From positions 15,653-79,652 of the forward strand of contig CAYRYS010000001.1 in assembly GCA_964428555.1 (NCBI GenBank): a DNA stretch of 64,000 bases. The letters run 5' to 3'. Within the stretch, counting starts at the first letter, position 1. Every line of letters begins with the position of its first letter. The position numbers were made by a program, and so were the translations under genes. Below are positions 5,771 to 41,175 of this stretch, piece by piece. The DNA is from an uncultured Spirochaetales bacterium (GTDB taxonomy: Bacteria > Spirochaetota > Spirochaetia > CAYRYS01). The notes under the pieces were generated by a model. That model was not told where the DNA came from, did not search any database, and saw only the letters and a program-made list of their open reading frames with translations.

Positions 5771-6364
5771 TTACTCTACGGTCTCTATTTCCTCTTCCCG
5801 GGTAGAAGGGTTTCTGGCAATGACTTCGCCGGAGGTATTTATGGTAAACCACCGATCCTGGGACTGAATAAAGGCTTCTCCGTTAACAAAAGGCCGTGCC
5901 TCCTGGAACTGAGTGTCAAAAACGAGTGCTCCTTCATTATCAATAAATCCCCATAGGTCATTCATCTGTACTGCAGCATAGCCTTCTGAGAAATACTGGG
6001 CATTTTGAAACTCAGGCTCTATTACCATTTCACCTGATTTATTGATAAAACCCCATTGGCTGCCGACCTTGACTGGACAAAGATCCTCAGAGAAGAATCC
6101 CGCATCATCATAGGCTGGAGCTATGACCATTTCTGCCTGCGGGTTGATAAAACCCCATTGGCTGTCTTGCAAAACCGCAGCTCTGTCTTGAGAAAATGCA
6201 CGGGCATTCTCAAACTGCGGCTGGATTACCACATAGCCGTCACTGTCTTTGTATCCGAAAACACCATCGTCACTATAAGGTACTAAAACCTGTTGTTCTC
6301 CGCAGCTAAAAAGTGAGAGAAAGATACTAATTAAAACCAAAGCAATAAGATATTTTTTAGACAT
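5771..6364 (-). CDS. WG-containing beta-repeat lipoprotein
   Basis: Signal peptide plus lipobox (LFSCG). At least four repeats of about 40 aa each centred on WGFIN/WGFID (WG-repeat family). SD AGGAG. Confidence 0.7.
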   Translation of the reverse strand: MSKKYLIALVLISIFLSLFSCGEQQVLVPYSDDGVFGYKDSDGYVVIQPQFENARAFSQDRAAVLQDSQWGFINPQAEMVIAPAYDDAGFFSEDLCPVKVGSQWGFINKSGEMVIEPEFQNAQYFSEGYAAVQMNDLWGFIDNEGALVFDTQFQEARPFVNGEAFIQSQDRWFTINTSGEVIARNPSTREEEIETVE

Positions 6365-6584
6365 AAAGACACTCCTATCCGGATCTACTAATCATTTTAC
6401 GGTAAATTCCATGGCTGTCAATCTATTCAGTCAGGTGCCGGAGTTTTTTTCATTACAAATTACTTTATTTATAAAGACTCAGAAAACTAGCATATCTATA
6501 CCCATTATTAACTTATCTACTTTTCACTTTGACAGTGCAGTAAAAAAAAATTAAGATTGTGTAAAATAAATTTAAGGTTATGTT

Positions 6585-8414
6585 ATGAAAATGAAGAAAA
6601 ACCTTACATTCATTGGTGTGTTTAGTATTTCCGCGGGTGCTATGATCAGTTCTGGTATATTCATTTTACCTGGTGTTGCCTTTTCCAGGACAGGACCGGC
6701 TGTTATTCTCTCTTATGCGATGGCAGGAGGGTTCGCTTTAGTAGGAATACTTAGTGTTATTGAACTTGCCACAGCAATGCCGAAGGCAGGCGGTGACTAC
6801 TTTTTTATTCACAGAAGCCTTGGGCCAATGATCGGTACCGTGTCCGGATTAGTCGGATGGATTGCCTTGTCATTAAAAAGCGCTTTTGCAATATACGGAA
6901 TTGCTGAGACCCTTGAGCTGGTGTTTTCCATTGAACCGTACCTAACAATCATAATCTGCTGCATTGTATTTGTTATCATGAATTGTATCGGAGTTGAGTT
7001 TGAAAATATTTTTCAAAGTATTCTGGTAGCAGCACTTCTTTTTTTGCTTGGTGTGTTTATCGCAACAGGACTGCCTAATGTCCAGCTACAGCGGTATACC
7101 CCTTTTTTTGCTGAAAGTATAGAATCAGTTTTTATAACTGCCGGTTTTATTTTTATCTCTTTTGGGGGGCTGTTACAAGTTGCGAGCATTAGTGAAGAGG
7201 TCAAGGACTTAAAAAAAACACTTCCAGCTGCAATGGGACTTTCGGTTTTAGTAATAACCGTATTTTATGTGTTGATAGTTTTTGTTATTACCGGTGTTCT
7301 TCCTTCTGAGCACTTTTCCGGTGCTTCAACTCCGGTCATCGATTCTTCTGAGTTTTTCTTGGGAGCAGCAGGCTATTGGATAGTAACAATCGCGTCCCTT
7401 CTGGCCTTCGTTACTACAGCAAACGCGGGAATACTCGCTGCATCAAGATACCCGGTAGCTCTTGGAAGAGACTCCCTTTTACCTCAGTTCTTAGCCAAAA
7501 TAAGCAAGAACACAAATATACCGGTACGTTCGGTTGTTTTGACAGGCATCTTGATCTTTATATCGCTTTTATTACCTATTGAAACACTGGTGAAAGCTGG
7601 GTCAACTGTGGTCTTAACCTCTTTTGTTTTTACAAATGCCGCAGTTATTATTTTTAGGGAAGGCAGAGTTAGTAACTATAAACCAAGCTTTTCTGCACCT
7701 TTCTATCCATTTCTGCAGATTTTTTCCATACTTCTATTTTCTTTCTTCATTATCGCGCTTGGACTTGAATCAATCGAAATTAGTCTGGGACTACTGTTTT
7801 TTGCTCTTGGAGTATATTTCTTTTACGGCAGAAAAAACGAGGATAAAGAATACGCACTTCTTCATCTTGTTGAGCGGATAACAGAAGCAGATCTGACAAC
7901 CGGAGACCTGGAGTCTGAGCTTAAAGTAATTGTTCACAAGCGGGATGATGCAAAAAAACAGGTCCTTGATATATTAGTCCAGGAAGCAGAGGTTATGGAT
8001 ATAGACGGTCCTCTTGACCTGGATGAGTTCTTTTCGCTTGTGTCAAAACAGATTGAAAATAAAGTAACATTATCAGCAGATGAAATTAAGGACAAACTCA
8101 TGGAAACAGAGCGTGAATGTTCCACTGCAGTTTCCAATTCCTTTGCAATACCCCATATCATATTACAGGATGGAGAAAAGGAAATGCTCTTAGTTTTAGT
8201 ACGTTCCAGAAATGGTATACATTTTTCAGAAGAACGAAAGAATGTAAAGATCGTTTTCCTCTTTATCGGGAGTATAGAGGACAGGCAGAAATATCTGAAG
8301 GCAATTGCTTCAATTGCTTGTCTTGTGAAAAAAAGCGGATTTATGGATAATTGGATGGAAGCAGAAGATCCTGAAGCACTGCGTGAGCTTGTGATGGAAA
8401 GCTCCGTACATTAG
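6585..8414 (+). CDS. APC-superfamily amino-acid permease fused to a C-terminal PTS EIIA type-2-like domain
   Basis: About 12 TM segments over aa 1-430. A C-terminal domain of about 150 aa follows, with SFAIPHIILQ resembling the EIIA-2 phospho-His signature ([LIVM]-A-[LIVMF]-P-H). Confidence 0.7.
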   Translation: MKMKKNLTFIGVFSISAGAMISSGIFILPGVAFSRTGPAVILSYAMAGGFALVGILSVIELATAMPKAGGDYFFIHRSLGPMIGTVSGLVGWIALSLKSAFAIYGIAETLELVFSIEPYLTIIICCIVFVIMNCIGVEFENIFQSILVAALLFLLGVFIATGLPNVQLQRYTPFFAESIESVFITAGFIFISFGGLLQVASISEEVKDLKKTLPAAMGLSVLVITVFYVLIVFVITGVLPSEHFSGASTPVIDSSEFFLGAAGYWIVTIASLLAFVTTANAGILAASRYPVALGRDSLLPQFLAKISKNTNIPVRSVVLTGILIFISLLLPIETLVKAGSTVVLTSFVFTNAAVIIFREGRVSNYKPSFSAPFYPFLQIFSILLFSFFIIALGLESIEISLGLLFFALGVYFFYGRKNEDKEYALLHLVERITEADLTTGDLESELKVIVHKRDDAKKQVLDILVQEAEVMDIDGPLDLDEFFSLVSKQIENKVTLSADEIKDKLMETERECSTAVSNSFAIPHIILQDGEKEMLLVLVRSRNGIHFSEERKNVKIVFLFIGSIEDRQKYLKAIASIACLVKKSGFMDNWMEAEDPEALRELVMESSVH

Positions 8415-34354: not shown

Positions 34355-34489
34355 GAGAAAAAAACAAAGAAAACTAATGAAAATCTAACAAAACCTATGT
34401 TATAGTGTTTACGAATTAGGGAAACTGGATTTTAATATAGAGAGTGCTTATAGAGAAGCAATGCTCTTTAATGAAAATGGAGGTATTTC

Positions 34490-35395
34490 ATGAAACGTTA
34501 TTTACTTGCTGTCCTTATTGTGACAGTGTCTCTGGGGATGTTTTTTTCGTGCGAACCTGAAGAAGCTGAACTTGGAACAGAGGAAAATCCGATTATCTGG
34601 TCATTTGTTCCATCAGGAGAAATGGAAAGAGTAGCAACTGGTGCGGATGAGGTTGCTGATCTTCTTCACGAAGAAACCGGTTATTATTTTGACACTAATG
34701 TAGCAACCGAATATGCCGGTGTAATTGAAGCTCTACAAAGTGATCCGCCGGCTGCGCATATGGCTTCGCTTGCAACATTTGCCTATGTTCTTGCAGCAGA
34801 CCGCGGTGTAGCAGAAGCAGAACTTGTATCTGTACGCTATGGAAGCGCGACATACAACGGACAGATTATTGCCGGAGCTGACACAGGAATTTCATCTATT
34901 GAAGACCTTGAAGGTCATTCTTTCGGCAGACCTGATCCGTTAAGTACATCCGGATGGATTATTCCCATGCTCACTATGCGCGCTAATGGTATTGATCCTG
35001 ATTCAGACCTTTCTCAGGTTGTTGATGCAGGTTCACACGATGCTGTTGTAGCTACTGTTTATAATGGTGATGTTGATGCAGGCGCATGTTATGTTGATGC
35101 AAGAAGCAGTATTGAAGATGAGTATCCGGACGTAATGGATGAGGTGCGGGTAATTGCTGTTACTGCTGATATTCCAAACGACGGTGTACAGTTTCACCCA
35201 AGCATTTCTGAAGTAATGCGGGAAACTATTGTTGGCGCACTGTTACGCATCGTAGCAACAGAAGAAGGCCAGGAAGCGCTTAGCACAGCCTATAATTGGA
35301 GCGATCTTGAAAGACACGACGATTCATTTTACGATCCTTTCCGCCAGGTACTCCAGGCATCCGGCATGAACGTAGAAGAACTAATGAGTGAATAA
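34490..35395 (+). CDS. phnD: Phosphonate/phosphite/phosphate-type ABC transporter substrate-binding lipoprotein (PhnD family)
   Basis: Signal peptide plus lipobox (FFSCE). Periplasmic-binding-protein fold composition. It sits immediately upstream of PhnC/PhnE homologs. Confidence 0.65.
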   Translation: MKRYLLAVLIVTVSLGMFFSCEPEEAELGTEENPIIWSFVPSGEMERVATGADEVADLLHEETGYYFDTNVATEYAGVIEALQSDPPAAHMASLATFAYVLAADRGVAEAELVSVRYGSATYNGQIIAGADTGISSIEDLEGHSFGRPDPLSTSGWIIPMLTMRANGIDPDSDLSQVVDAGSHDAVVATVYNGDVDAGACYVDARSSIEDEYPDVMDEVRVIAVTADIPNDGVQFHPSISEVMRETIVGALLRIVATEEGQEALSTAYNWSDLERHDDSFYDPFRQVLQASGMNVEELMSE

Positions 35396-35451
35396 GGCTT
35401 AAGTAATTCTAAAAGGAGGGGCTCGGTCCCTCCTTTCTTTTTGGGGGATCC

Positions 35452-36240
35452 ATGTTACAAGTTCTAAATCTAGGAAAAACCTATGATGACGGCACAGAAG
35501 CGTTAAAAGATGTAAGCTTTAAAGTAGAAAAAGGTGAGTTCCTTGTTGTTATCGGGTTAAGCGGTTCAGGTAAATCAACTCTTTTACGGTGTATTAACCG
35601 GTTGGTTGACCCGACTGTGGGCACAATTCTTTGGCACGATGAAGATATAACAACTGCAAAGGATGAGAAACTGCGCGTAATTAGAAGGAAGATCGGTATG
35701 ATCTTTCAGCATTTTAATTTAGTAAAACGTTCTTCAGTATTAACGAATGTATTATCCGGCAGACTCGGGTACATAAACCCGTGGAAGAGTCTATTTCACG
35801 GGTTTTCTAAAAAGAATAAAAAGGATGCTTACAGTGCGCTAGAGCAGGTTGGTCTTACAGATCAGGCTCAAAAGCGGGCTGACGAGCTTTCTGGCGGGCA
35901 GCAGCAGCGGGTTGGCATAGCTCGGGCATTAATGCAGACCCCTGAGCTTATTTTGGCAGATGAACCTGTTGCCAGTTTGGACCCGGTGCTAGCACACAGT
36001 ATTCTCGGTTATTTAGAAAAGCTGAATAAAGAAATGGGAATTACTATTATCTGCAGTCTCCACTATTTGGACCTTGTACAAAGGTACGCAACACGGGTAA
36101 TAGGCCTCCGGGACGGCAGGCTTGTGTATGAAGGCAACCAAAGTGATATACGCCAGATGACAGATGCGCAATTTAAAGAAATATACGGAGAAGACGCAGA
36201 ACGCATTGGTGTCGGTTCAGTAACAGAGGGAGGGGAATAA
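35452..36240 (+). CDS. phnC: Phosphonate ABC transporter ATP-binding protein (PhnC family)
   Basis: Walker A GLSGSGKST, LSGGQQQR signature, Walker B ILADEP. The N-terminus LNLGKTYDDGTEALKDVSF is typical of PhnC. Confidence 0.8.
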   Translation: MLQVLNLGKTYDDGTEALKDVSFKVEKGEFLVVIGLSGSGKSTLLRCINRLVDPTVGTILWHDEDITTAKDEKLRVIRRKIGMIFQHFNLVKRSSVLTNVLSGRLGYINPWKSLFHGFSKKNKKDAYSALEQVGLTDQAQKRADELSGGQQQRVGIARALMQTPELILADEPVASLDPVLAHSILGYLEKLNKEMGITIICSLHYLDLVQRYATRVIGLRDGRLVYEGNQSDIRQMTDAQFKEIYGEDAERIGVGSVTEGGE

Positions 36241-37751
36241 TGCTGAGAGAAAAACAATCGAAAGAAACCAAGTCATTAATTCCAGCTCCTGCCCTTGCGG
36301 TGCTCTCTCTCTTTGTTCCAGGTCTTGGGCAGGCGTTTGCAAAAAAAGTCGGAAGGGGTTTTCTGTTATTATCCTCATTTTTGACTATTGTCAGCATATT
36401 TTATTGGCGTATTTATCTGCTTGCACATCGTGAAGTTGGAATATTGGCGCAGTATATAAAAGCCCTGGACCGCAGGTTCTTTTTTATTGCAATCCTTACG
36501 GTCATGATTATTGGAATATGGGTTTGGAACATTATCGATGCATACCGCCTTGGAAAGAAAGGGAAAAAGGGGATCGGTATATTCGGGCTAGTGCTTTTTT
36601 CCTTATTCATACTCGGGTGGCAGATCGCTGAAATAGATGTATACAGAGCAGCTACTGAGTTCCCTGATGCATGGCCTCCGTTATCCAAGGTTCTTTGGCC
36701 TTGGGAAGCAGCAATAGACTATGAAGCGGAAATCATGGACGCAGGAGCCCAAATTCTTGACGGGTGTGAAGGAGAGCTTCCCCCTGTTCCAGAGGAAGAA
36801 CCGGGAGAGCCTTATATTCGTGTTGAACCAAGGTGCGGAAACCTTGCGGAGATGGCTAATGACGGTACAATCACTCCTGGAACGGAACTGACTATTGAAG
36901 GCAAAAACTTTGAACCGAATACCAGGACTGAAATATGGTGGGTGGACCCTATCGGCAATGAATTCAGGCCGCGGCAGGATGGCGAATATCTGAGCCTTAT
37001 GACAGATGAAAATGGTGAGTTCACCATGGAGATGACCATGCCCTACCGCTTAATTCCGCCCAGTGCTTCTGGAGAGCAGATTCACCATGTTGAAGCACGG
37101 CAGACTTCTCAAGTCGGTCCGCCGCTGCCGTCGGAACCCCTGATTTTAACTATTCAAAGAATGATAGAAACAATCTTCATGGGAATGATGGCCACTGTTT
37201 TTGGTATTATCTTTTCAATACCGATCAGTTTTTTGGCTGCTAGAAACCTGATGGAAGCCTCTCCGGTTACCCTGGCTATTTACTATCTTACCCGTACTAT
37301 CTTGAACATCATCCGGTCGATTGAGCCGCTTATCTGGGCACTCATTGCTGTTGTCTGGGTAGGGCTTGGACCATTTGCCGGTATAATTGCGCTTACAATA
37401 CACTCAATTGCAGCTCTTGGGAAATTATATTCCGAAGCAATTGAGGGAATAGATGACGGGCCGATAGAAGCGATACGTGCAACAGGTGCGAACGGAATTC
37501 AGACAATTATGTTTGCTGTCATACCGCAGATGATTCCGCCCTTTGTTTCGTTCTCAATCTACAGGTGGGATATCAATGTCCGAATGTCAACCATTATCGG
37601 TCTTGTCGGCGGAGGCGGTATCGGTTTCCTCCTCGTTCAGTATATTCGGCTGCTGGATTACCGTTCTGCAGGTATAGCAGTTTGGTTTATTGCAATTACC
37701 GTTGCAATCCTTGACTATGTAAGTGCTGAAATACGCAGAAGGTTTGTATAA
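36240..37751 (+). CDS. phnE: PhnE-family ABC permease with ~230-aa N-terminal extension (extra TM helices plus an extracytoplasmic domain)
   Basis: The C-terminal ~270 aa matches the PhnE permease core (EAA-like loop region ...IEGIDDGPIEAIRATGAN...). The N-terminal part has 3-4 TMs and an acidic/Pro-rich soluble segment. The start overlaps the phnC stop. Confidence 0.75.
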   Translation: MLREKQSKETKSLIPAPALAVLSLFVPGLGQAFAKKVGRGFLLLSSFLTIVSIFYWRIYLLAHREVGILAQYIKALDRRFFFIAILTVMIIGIWVWNIIDAYRLGKKGKKGIGIFGLVLFSLFILGWQIAEIDVYRAATEFPDAWPPLSKVLWPWEAAIDYEAEIMDAGAQILDGCEGELPPVPEEEPGEPYIRVEPRCGNLAEMANDGTITPGTELTIEGKNFEPNTRTEIWWVDPIGNEFRPRQDGEYLSLMTDENGEFTMEMTMPYRLIPPSASGEQIHHVEARQTSQVGPPLPSEPLILTIQRMIETIFMGMMATVFGIIFSIPISFLAARNLMEASPVTLAIYYLTRTILNIIRSIEPLIWALIAVVWVGLGPFAGIIALTIHSIAALGKLYSEAIEGIDDGPIEAIRATGANGIQTIMFAVIPQMIPPFVSFSIYRWDINVRMSTIIGLVGGGGIGFLLVQYIRLLDYRSAGIAVWFIAITVAILDYVSAEIRRRFV

Positions 37752-37770
37752 AGCTCTTAGAAATTCCATA

Positions 37771-37799
37771 AAAGCCGTCTTTACAGGCGGCTTTTTTTA
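37771..37799 (+). terminator. Rho-independent terminator after phnE
   Basis: GCCGTC-TTTACA-GGCGGC hairpin followed by T7. Confidence 0.6.
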
Positions 37800-38907: not shown

Positions 38908-39630
38908 TTACACAAGTGTTTTGGAATACAAGACCTGGTCCCCAATCTGTTTCTGTTTCTTATACCCGTTTTTTACCAAATATTTATGGTGGGACCTATT
39001 ATCAGCATGATTTAGCGCAAGTATAAAGTCTATGTTTCTGCCAAGGTCTACTGCCATTTCTTTATACAACCTGTCTGATATACCTATATCCCTGTACTTT
39101 GCTGTTACATAATCAACATCCAGGTATACACTTTTCTGCGGAAAAAGTTCAGCGTGAATATACTGGATAAGGGCTTTTTCATCATCATTCTTGCACATTT
39201 CCGGTTCGGGTATCGGCAGATAATAGGCAAAGCCGACTGTTGTAAAGTCCTGAACTGCAAGATACACATTACCGGAGCTAAATGCATAGTCCAGTTTCTT
39301 TTCATGAAACAATGGGTAAAAATGGAGAATATCGTTTTTAAAGCTTTCAACAAAGCGCATTACTCTGCGTTTTTCTCCCTTCTCAATAGTGAGGTAGGTA
39401 AATCTACTTATGTCTCTATTAAACATACGCAATAGATAGAAAACATTTACTGCGCAAATAAAGCCGTTTGTAATGATTAGGGGAATTGAACCGATGAACA
39501 CACCATATATAACGAATGTTAGAGACCCGACCAAGTTCAGGACCCTAAGCTTTACAATGGAAACCATTAAAAGGGATATAGCAACAAAGAATGATGCAAT
39601 ATAACCGATTATTTCTACAATTGAAAACAT
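38908..39630 (-). CDS. Membrane-anchored hypothetical protein with GNAT-like C-terminal region
   Basis: Two N-terminal TMs. The C-terminal YRDIGISDRL resembles GNAT motif A. Weak. Confidence 0.35.
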   Translation of the reverse strand: MFSIVEIIGYIASFFVAISLLMVSIVKLRVLNLVGSLTFVIYGVFIGSIPLIITNGFICAVNVFYLLRMFNRDISRFTYLTIEKGEKRRVMRFVESFKNDILHFYPLFHEKKLDYAFSSGNVYLAVQDFTTVGFAYYLPIPEPEMCKNDDEKALIQYIHAELFPQKSVYLDVDYVTAKYRDIGISDRLYKEMAVDLGRNIDFILALNHADNRSHHKYLVKNGYKKQKQIGDQVLYSKTLV

Positions 39631-39948: not shown

Positions 39949-41175
39949 ATGAATTTTTGTTATATACCAGTTGCATCTGACCTGCACGATCCGAAAGTAC
40001 TGAATGCTTTGCTTGCAAAATATGAGCCCCAGTTTAATGATATTGGAGGTGCTCCGTGCGGGCCTGAACCTTTTGCGAAGAGGGATACTATTTGCTATTT
40101 TATTGTTACAGGAGGTACAGAAGAAAAAGCGCTGGACCTTGTATCAAAAGCAGAAGACCCGGATAGCCCTGTCTTCCTTTTGGCCCATCCTTCACAAAAT
40201 TCCCTGCCAGCTTCTTTGGAAATTCTTGCAAAACTTCACCAGGATGGTAAAAAAGGCAAAATAATCTATCTGGATCCGGAAGACCCGGGGGCATGGAAGA
40301 ACGAGCTCTCAGATGCTGTGAAGCAAGCTGAAACAGCGAAATATCTGCGCGGGAAAACAATCGGTGTAATCGGTGATCCCTCTGACTGGCTGGTTGCCAG
40401 CTCTCCGGATACTGTGACTACAGAAACAGCCTTTGGAGTCCGCTTGAAAAGAATTTCAATGGACACCCTCCGGGATCACCTTGAATCAATTAATGATGCA
40501 GAAGTACAAAGCATGATTCAAGAAGATAAAATAGAGGAAAAATCCGTACGAGAACCGATGTCTGAAGATTTTTCTGATGCAGTTCGGGTATATTTAGGTA
40601 TGAAAAAACTGGTTGCGGCTGAAAAAATTGATGCAGTAACTTTGCGTTGTTTTGACCTTGTAATTGGAGAAAAGACAACAGGGTGTTATGCTTTGGCAAA
40701 ATTGAATGATGAAGGAATTGTTGCAGGATGTGAGGGCGATATCGTAACTGCATTAACTATGGAATGGCTGAAAGAATTGACAGGTAAGCTTCCATGGATG
40801 GCAAACCCTTCCAGGATATTCAGGAAATCCAATACACTTGTTCTTGCTCACTGTACTGTTCCATTTTCCTTGGTTTCCTCATTTACTTTCCGTTCTCATT
40901 TTGAGTCAGGAGTGGGTGTGGGGATTCAAGGGAAGGTAAAAGCAGAAGAGGTCACCCTGGTTAGAATCGGCGGAAAAAACCTGGATAGAATATGGGCAGC
41001 TGAGGGAAGGGTTGCATCAACAGGAAATGCAGCGGACCTTTGCAGAACACAAATTCACGTGCAGTTTGATGATTTTCCAAAGGATCTGCTTTCAGACCCG
41101 CTTGGTAACCATATAACAGTGATAGAGGGAAGGTTTAAAGAAACAATTTTGTCATGGTGGAATGACTACCGTTAA
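39949..41175 (+). CDS. L-fucose/L-arabinose isomerase-family protein (putative sugar isomerase), low certainty
   Basis: 408 aa. The central GCYALAKLNDEGIVAGCEGDIVTA block resembles the FucI/AraA C-terminal catalytic region. By memory only. Confidence 0.4.
   Translation: MNFCYIPVASDLHDPKVLNALLAKYEPQFNDIGGAPCGPEPFAKRDTICYFIVTGGTEEKALDLVSKAEDPDSPVFLLAHPSQNSLPASLEILAKLHQDGKKGKIIYLDPEDPGAWKNELSDAVKQAETAKYLRGKTIGVIGDPSDWLVASSPDTVTTETAFGVRLKRISMDTLRDHLESINDAEVQSMIQEDKIEEKSVREPMSEDFSDAVRVYLGMKKLVAAEKIDAVTLRCFDLVIGEKTTGCYALAKLNDEGIVAGCEGDIVTALTMEWLKELTGKLPWMANPSRIFRKSNTLVLAHCTVPFSLVSSFTFRSHFESGVGVGIQGKVKAEEVTLVRIGGKNLDRIWAAEGRVASTGNAADLCRTQIHVQFDDFPKDLLSDPLGNHITVIEGRFKETILSWWNDYR

Follow-up and report, generated by a model that had tools for sequence, protein, structure and literature searches.

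Long PhnE, a PhnE-type permease of Spirochaetota and Chloroflexota with an N-terminal membrane module and a beta-domain inserted before the permease core

Long PhnE is a PhnE-type ABC transporter permease of 503 amino acids (aa) that is encoded in the genome of an uncultured Spirochaetales bacterium (assembly GCA_964428555.1, contig CAYRYS010000001.1). The DNA analysed, termed the window, is a 64,000-nucleotide (nt) stretch of this contig (positions 15,653–79,652, forward strand), and nt positions given below are those of the window unless a locus is named. The protein consists of four parts: an N-terminal membrane module (N-module, aa positions 1–106), the first transmembrane (TM) helix of PhnE with its loop (TM1 and loop, 107–158), an inserted beta-domain (159–297) and the permease core (298–503). 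The ~240 residues that it has over the 259 aa E. coli PhnE are divided between the N-module and the insertion of ~140 aa. A previous sequence-only reading of this DNA had described one N-terminal extension of 230 aa, holding a soluble segment of about 110 aa. This is replaced here by two separate additions, an N-module and a loop insertion that follows the canonical TM1 and loop, and the soluble segment measures ~140 aa. The parts of the open reading frame are:

36240–37751, + strand: long phnE, permease open reading frame of 503 aa, uninterrupted, ATG start
36240–36557, + strand: variable N-terminal tail and N-terminal membrane module, residues 1–106 (hydropathy, AlphaFold2)
36558–36713, + strand: cytoplasmic KKGKK loop, TM helix 113–129 and short periplasmic helices with a WPPLS...WPW-AA motif, residues 107–158 (splice test and pairwise alignment)
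36714–37130, + strand: inserted all-beta, immunoglobulin (Ig)-like (possibly MG2/Gmad2-like) sandwich, residues 159–297, with long first and last strands and the pair Cys176–Cys199
37131–37751, + strand: MetI-like permease core of five TM helices, residues 298–503 and stop codon, with the EAA motif (EAIEGIDDGPIEAIRATGA)

The long phnE open reading frame is a real gene and not an artefact. Its ATG and the TAA stop codon of the upstream phnC have one base in common, and GGAGGGG is found 5′ of the ATG. A sequencing or assembly error that merged two genes, or a wrongly chosen start codon, can for practical purposes be dismissed: the same architecture is present in the best 120 protein clusters and in the best 80 species genomes, which are independent assemblies, the first 30 residues are conserved, and the start is translationally coupled and has a ribosome-binding site. 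The best 120 clusters (formed at 90% identity) have chain lengths of 484–534 aa, are 62%–72% identical at a coverage of ~95%–100% and are named PhnE where the source gives a name. With tblastn, residues 1–503 are matched as one segment in many genomes. A frameshift or a separate upstream gene, which the sequence-only reading had named as a possible explanation of the N-terminal part, is excluded by these cluster lengths and one-segment matches.

Long PhnE scores 254.2 bits with the PhnE equivalog model TIGR01097, above its cut-off of 216.7, and also matches PF00528 (E-value = 1.3e-13); its earlier assignment as a PhnE-type permease is thereby upheld. The TIGR01097 match is limited to residues 303–502, i.e. 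profile positions 56–251 of 252, and is not collinear over the full length of the protein. The alignment with MetI (3dhw) starts at residue 298. E. coli PhnE (259 aa) was reconstructed from the K-12 pseudogene by deletion of an 8-bp duplication, and its residues 66–259 show 39% identity with residues 305–503 of long PhnE. Upstream of the core, hydropathy displays four hydrophobic segments before residue 135, and residues 136–300 are soluble, with a net charge of −22 and two Cys. A full-length AlphaFold2 (AF2) model was built from 40 family members and was read as secondary structure and predicted local distance difference test (pLDDT) values, without coordinates. It gives helices at 16–25, 29–33, 37–61, 68–78, 80–106 and 113–129, short helices up to position 158, and an all-beta region at 159–297 with pLDDT 80–90.

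In canonical PhnE, the core of five TM helices is preceded by a single TM helix and a short “FFPPD” loop. Helix 4 of long PhnE (113–129) and the loop after it are, with moderate confidence, equated with this canonical TM1 and loop, because an in-silico splice test and a shuffle-controlled alignment agree, giving signals that are modest but consistent. In the splice test against TIGR01097, residues 104–160 joined to residues 298–503 score 259.6 bits (profile positions 10–251), the core alone scores 252.1 bits (positions 58–251), and a control chimera with other upstream helices scores 249.8 bits (positions 38–251). Relative to the core alone, the splice is 7.5 bits better and the control chimera 2.3 bits worse. 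When residues 107–160 are aligned locally with E. coli PhnE residues 1–66, the alignment is collinear and places VLFSLFILGWQIAEI...DAWPP opposite VVLAVLVVSWQGAEM...DFFPP, so that helix 113–129 and the WPP loop are paired with E. coli residues 20–57 (TM1 and the FFPPD loop). Its score is 37, and that of shuffled sequences is 24.8 ± 5.0 (a difference of ~2.4 standard deviations; 61 of 2000 shuffles reach 37). Two other segments of the N-module, used as controls in the same alignment test, gave no signal. Local BLASTP and hhalign comparisons of the family with E. coli PhnE recovered the core alone. Given the TM1 equivalence, long PhnE would therefore be built from an N-module and a loop insertion and not from one contiguous extension. 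The extra TM helices of the sequence-only reading are borne out: three lie in the N-module, and helix 4 appears to be the TM1 that canonical PhnE also has.

The N-module, whose three hydrophobic helices fall within residues 14–106, shows helices at approximately 16–33 (kinked at PGLGQ), 37–61 and 80–106, and an amphipathic helix at 68–78 (AF2 pLDDT 77–88). Conserved motifs within it are S23, P27-G28, G30, R39-G40, W56-R57, W94 and D100.

The beta-domain was also modelled separately. Residues 150–304 alone give a beta-sandwich with a pLDDT of 87 and a predicted template modelling score (pTM) of 0.77, in which the first and last strands are ~17 residues long. From their lengths, these terminal strands may form a stalk on which the sandwich stands clear of the membrane. 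A core of the MetI type starts on the outer side of the membrane. In the family, loops 32–40 and 101–112 are consistently positive (average +2 and +3, respectively). In alignment A1, C176 and C199 co-vary: both are present in 32 of 40 sequences, both are missing from 8, and no sequence has one alone, a pattern that fits a disulfide. (In alignment A3, the divergent and apparently frameshifted P0133 lacks the first Cys only.) There is a strong case that the beta-domain is extracytoplasmic (periplasmic), because the MetI-type core starts outside, the two loops are positive and the Cys pair co-varies; the location proposed in the sequence-only reading is borne out by the same three observations.

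The same reading had called the domain acidic. This is correct for the organism studied here, where residues 159–297 carry a net charge of −20, but it is not a trait of the family, in which the charge ranges from −20 to +4 with a mean of −9. Acidity was considered as a functional signature of the domain and rejected, as the charge is not conserved and the binding protein of this organism is even more acidic. The acidity of both proteins points to a trait of the organism, possibly an adaptation to salt.

A Pfam scan of the query yielded no match on the beta-domain at E ≤ 0.1, MG2 (PF01835) and Gmad2 (PF10648) included, and a beta-domain profile gave no significant hit with PDB sequences (best E-value = 0.03). 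In an exhaustive search of representative sequences, residues ~200–273 match repeats of large proteins, and in Pfam these repeats belong to MG2, Gmad2, SdrD_B, transthyretin-like and TIG. The beta-domain occurs as a complete copy, with 42% identity, at positions 432–568 of P0179, a WD40 propeller protein of 599 aa. As this copy stands beside a WD40 propeller, the beta-domain also exists outside transporters. It appears to be a mobile Ig module, resembling MG2, to which long terminal strands have been added; there is no family model for it.

The spread of the long form, which the sequence-only reading had proposed to survey, was determined at two levels. Species-representative genomes were searched with two core peptides typical of the subfamily; this yielded at least 600 stretches, with 591 confirmed relatives, and the architecture was read in the best 80. 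All of these 80 are long forms, approximately 54 from Spirochaetota (including Sediminispirochaeta, Alkalispirochaeta, Salinispira and Marispirochaeta) and 25 from Chloroflexota (Anaerolineae, Thermoflexia, Ornatilinea). Residues 1–300 match 189 of 1.84 billion representatives of clusters formed at 50% identity, 97 of them at E ≤ 1e-10. The long form is characteristic of a narrow clade and is not general to PhnE. The suspicion that the extension might be common and already described is thus correct as far as it is common to the whole clade, but it is not found in PhnE generally, and a search of the literature (open-access papers and preprints) found no description of long PhnE.

A census with four hidden Markov models (HMMs) shows every full-length member to have the order N-module, TM1-loop, beta-domain, core. 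In four members, two permeases are fused in tandem, the second being a plain core. Divergent members (37%–47% identical) keep both the architecture and the Cys pair. Mean pairwise identity is 50% in the N-module, 61% in TM1 and loop, 58% in the beta-domain and 85% in the core. As judged from the alignments, the N-module and the beta-domain are under purifying selection, because they retain 50% and 58% identity, respectively, across two phyla. There are also larger variants. P0137, P0145 and P0154 have ~70–200 additional residues between the N-module and TM1, and P0137, P0145 and P0168 (a fragment) display an extra insertion of ~115–145 aa within the core, after approximately position 45–80 of the core HMM. 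Tandem beta-domains were considered for the 700-aa variants P0137, P0145 and P0154 and rejected, since the census found one beta-domain in each.

Among loci L004–L083, long PhnE shows 59% identity between Spirochaetota and Chloroflexota and 61%–64% within a phylum. Nearest neighbours are mostly of the same phylum, and there are three cross-phylum nearest-neighbour pairs. This suggests either a transfer of the whole operon between the phyla or the presence of some mis-binned contigs.

Long phnE is the last of three co-directional genes, the others encoding a PhnD-like solute-binding protein (SBP) and the PhnC ATPase. The remaining features of the operon are:

34377–34406, + strand: candidate sigma-70-like promoter upstream of the SBP gene (ATGAAA, 18 nt, TG-TATAGT), a consensus match that is weak, as such sites are as frequent in the region as in shuffled sequence
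34490–35395, + strand: PhnD-like SBP gene, 301 aa (PF12974, E-value = 2.3e-52; TIGR01098)
35412–35436, + strand: candidate intra-operon attenuator between the SBP gene and phnC, a hairpin of 11 bp (6 G-C) followed by a T-run
35452–36240, + strand: PhnC ATPase, 262 aa (TIGR02315, 340.5 bits, cut-off 266.1; PF00005)
37770–37795, + strand: hairpin (11 bp) resembling an intrinsic terminator, followed by a T-run, closing the operon 3′ of phnE

The strong hairpin at 35412–35436 looks like an attenuator, and as such would leave the SBP transcript in excess over those of the membrane components. Wherever upstream DNA is present among 79 loci, the three genes stand in the order SBP, ATPase, long permease, and the SBP is 55%–76% identical. 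Clustering of the neighbours in the 79 loci revealed no linked catabolic or regulatory gene. The sole recurrent neighbour beyond the operon is a 245-aa P-loop-like protein (MKKKDPFDILILLGRPASGKSE...), encoded directly 3′ of long phnE in 11 of the 79 loci (L020, positions 6305–7042 of that locus, and 10 others); no family occurs in more than 11.

The SBP has a signal peptide with a lipobox-like FFSC (Cys21) and is probably a lipoprotein, in agreement with the sequence-only reading. A lipoprotein SBP as the obligatory partner of the beta-domain was considered and rejected, as a crude pattern detects a lipobox Cys in only ~29 of the 65 homologues of the SBP. The mature part of the SBP has a net charge of −43 (54 D/E vs. 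13 K/R), which hints at an extracytoplasmic proteome like that of halophiles; Salinispira, Alkalispirochaeta and Sediminispirochaeta are the source of many relatives.

With respect to the substrate, the SBP passes the cut-off of TIGR01098, the broad phosphate/phosphite/phosphonate subfamily (178 bits, cut-off 112), and fails that of the PhnD equivalog TIGR03431 (119 bits, cut-off 261). Its closest solved relative is a PtxB (5lv1, E-value = 3.4e-21). The earlier remark that the substrate need not be a phosphonate gains weight from these results and from the 79 loci, in which no catabolic gene is linked. The transported solute would be a small phosphorus oxyanion, i.e. phosphate, phosphite or a simple phosphonate. 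The picocyanobacterial PhnD1 binds phosphite, phosphate and methylphosphonate and has been proposed to serve a constitutive phosphate transporter (PMC10284923), and the E. coli PhnCDE also imports phosphate (PMC6469041).

Long PhnE is proposed to be the membrane part of a type I ABC importer with three components, the others being the PhnD-like SBP and PhnC. There is a single permease gene; the permease is presumably a homodimer, and each transporter would therefore carry two copies of the beta-domain. The N-module most likely adds helices at the periphery, packed around TM1. The beta-domain, inserted in the first periplasmic loop (P1), would lie beside the docking site of the SBP and would recruit, orient or retain the cognate SBP. 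Docking or retention of the SBP is the tentatively favoured function, by analogy, although it falls a little short of being probable. It is preferred to direct recognition of the substrate because the position of the beta-domain matches that of the SBP-docking loops of MalF and DppB. The P2 region of MalF is an Ig-like domain in the loop before the five-TM core; it reaches ~3 nm into the periplasm and is bound to MalE's N-lobe during the entire cycle (PMC6906923). In Mycobacterium tuberculosis, the P1 loop of DppB, which joins TMH1 to TMH2, touches both DppA and its lipid anchor and serves as a scoop (PMC10954201). An extension of this analogy is more doubtful: the operon may encode a phosphorus-oxyanion importer that has become MalF-like by convergence, in which two Ig-like domains clamp the SBP permanently to the transporter (a “captive-SBP” design).

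Several points weigh against the architecture and function proposed here. The contact between beta-domain and SBP is put forward from position and precedent. In the organism studied, both partners are strongly acidic (−20 and −43), which disfavours a simple electrostatic docking. The TM1-loop segment gives no match when it is scanned alone against the PhnE model, and the scores for the TM1 equivalence are modest. The full-length AF2 model is moderately confident in the helical core (pLDDT 50–70). Finally, the first hydrophobic segment is either a true TM helix, with the N-terminus outside, or re-entrant, with the N-terminus inside; long PhnE has either 9 TMs and an outside N-terminus or 8 TMs and a re-entrant segment. 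By the positive-inside rule, the charges of the N-terminal tail and of loop 58–79 do not discriminate between these two topologies.

Two other functions for the beta-domain have been weighed. It may be a structural or envelope-contact element that stabilises or positions the transporter, e.g. a spacer, a dimerisation cap that forms a vestibule in the periplasm, or an element touching peptidoglycan, sheath or S-layer components. The nearest folds and sequence relatives are indeed repeats of cell-surface, adhesin, S-layer and macroglobulin proteins, the WD40 fusion P0179 shows the domain behaving as a general extracytoplasmic module, and Gly, Pro or an aromatic residue stands at many of the invariant positions, as is usual where conservation is structural. 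This role is nevertheless unlikely: the domain goes strictly with one transporter subfamily and the SBP inherited with it, in two phyla whose envelopes differ greatly, and its mean identity of 58% together with the conserved polar residues D236, R245, R270 and Q288 suggests a specific partner within the system. The other possibility, originally raised in the sequence-only reading, is that the domain recognises or pre-concentrates the solute (e.g. a cation-bridged phosphate or phosphonate) or gates the periplasmic entrance. Its place directly above the translocation pathway would suit such a role, the invariant W234, R245, Y250, Y269 and R270 could form an oxyanion site, and the acidic surface found in this organism could bind divalent cations. 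However, neither sequence nor fold yields a ligand-binding homologue, the sandwich being a generic Ig-like one, and the acidity is not conserved (−20 to +4); a dedicated high-affinity SBP is moreover always co-encoded and makes a second recognition domain unnecessary. Recognition or gating is accordingly given a low probability, below that of a structural role.

A separate proposal concerns the N-module and is compatible with any function of the beta-domain: the module may be a formerly independent small membrane protein with a PGLGQ motif (DUF6677/DUF5683-like) that became fused to PhnE and has its own role in regulation, assembly or localisation. Weak DUF6677 and DUF5683 matches recur at the N-terminal end of both the query and several relatives, the PGLGQ, RG, WR and DA motifs are conserved, and the fused tandem permeases retain the N-module, which precedes the first half only. 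Nearly all of the matches are below threshold, however. On the query they reach 14.4 bits against a Pfam gathering threshold of 24.3, and 13.5 against 26.7 (E-value = 0.059 and 0.071, respectively); on relatives they reach 18.6–22 bits, still below threshold (E-values of ~1e-3 to 2e-4). Precomputed family labels appear on only ~7 of the best 120 clusters, and the representatives that match the N-module only are mostly short fragments from short contigs. Both families are of unknown function, so the assignment predicts nothing. A fused protein with a role of its own is thus improbable, and peripheral helices around TM1 are preferred for the N-module.

The genes flanking the operon are unrelated to it and encode a GH5 cellulase, PspC, an adenosine deaminase, a Na/Ca exchanger and a pyrimidine-nucleoside phosphorylase. 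Positions 38908–39630 (− strand) of the window encode a 240-aa protein with an N-terminal YgjV-like membrane segment (PF10688, E-value = 2.6e-5) and ~170 C-terminal aa without a family match. A 408-aa protein is encoded at positions 39949–41175 (+ strand); its sole match is a weak one to AraA_central (L-arabinose isomerase central domain, E-value = 4.8e-8), and it could represent a sugar isomerase-like enzyme not yet characterised.

Neither for the N-module nor for the beta-domain was a Pfam model, a solved structure or a paper found. The database label “PhnE” conceals a doubled size and two uncharacterised modules, and both the beta-domain (159–297) and the N-module are candidates for the definition of new domain families. 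Surveys of phosphorus cycling that count “phnE” in Spirochaetota or Chloroflexota should treat this operon as one of unknown specificity, possibly for phosphate or phosphite. MalF P2 binds MalE with a Kd of 7–22 uM. If the beta-domain docks the SBP, the MalF P2 principle would have arisen independently for a second time, which would favour the loop before the five-TM core as a recurrent site for the evolution of SBP-handling devices. If the SBP is captive, the design would be a convergent one common to Spirochaetota and Chloroflexota, and would offer a natural test of the effect of SBP retention on the kinetics of type I importers.

Long PhnE can be compared with several known systems. Like the canonical E. 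coli PhnE, it displays the EAA, GLGPFAG and VGGGGIG motifs and is partnered by PhnC and a PhnD-like SBP, but it is approximately twice as long, with three additional helices at the N-terminus and a beta-domain of 140 aa inserted in the P1 loop. Unlike in the E. coli system, the SBP is not a PhnD equivalog of the E. coli type, and no C-P lyase or catabolic genes are linked. The picocyanobacterial PhnD1CE and cyanobacterial PtxB-type systems are, like the present one, stand-alone SBP-ATPase-permease operons without linked genes for phosphite or phosphonate catabolism. They differ in that SBP similarity is low (79 bits) and that their permeases show no sign of an N-module or beta-domain, the taxonomy of each of the 189 representatives matching residues 1–300 not having been checked.

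The tie of the beta-domain to the MG2, Gmad2 and prealbumin-like Ig domains (PF01835, PF10648) is an indirect one, through the repeat proteins that match both. Among permeases, the copy of the PDB that was searched contained no PhnE, and the nearest solved structures are those of MetI and other type I importer permeases. In M. tuberculosis DppABCD, the P1 loop of DppB (DppB/OppB type) is the same loop as the one that holds the beta-domain, but it is an alpha-helical scoop of 56 aa, whereas the P1 loop of long PhnE holds a beta-sandwich of 140 aa. With MalF of MalFGK2 the analogy is positional, as the comparison of P2 with the beta-domain did not indicate homology: MalF, like long PhnE, is a type I importer permease with extra N-terminal TMs and an Ig-like periplasmic domain just before the core of five TM helices.

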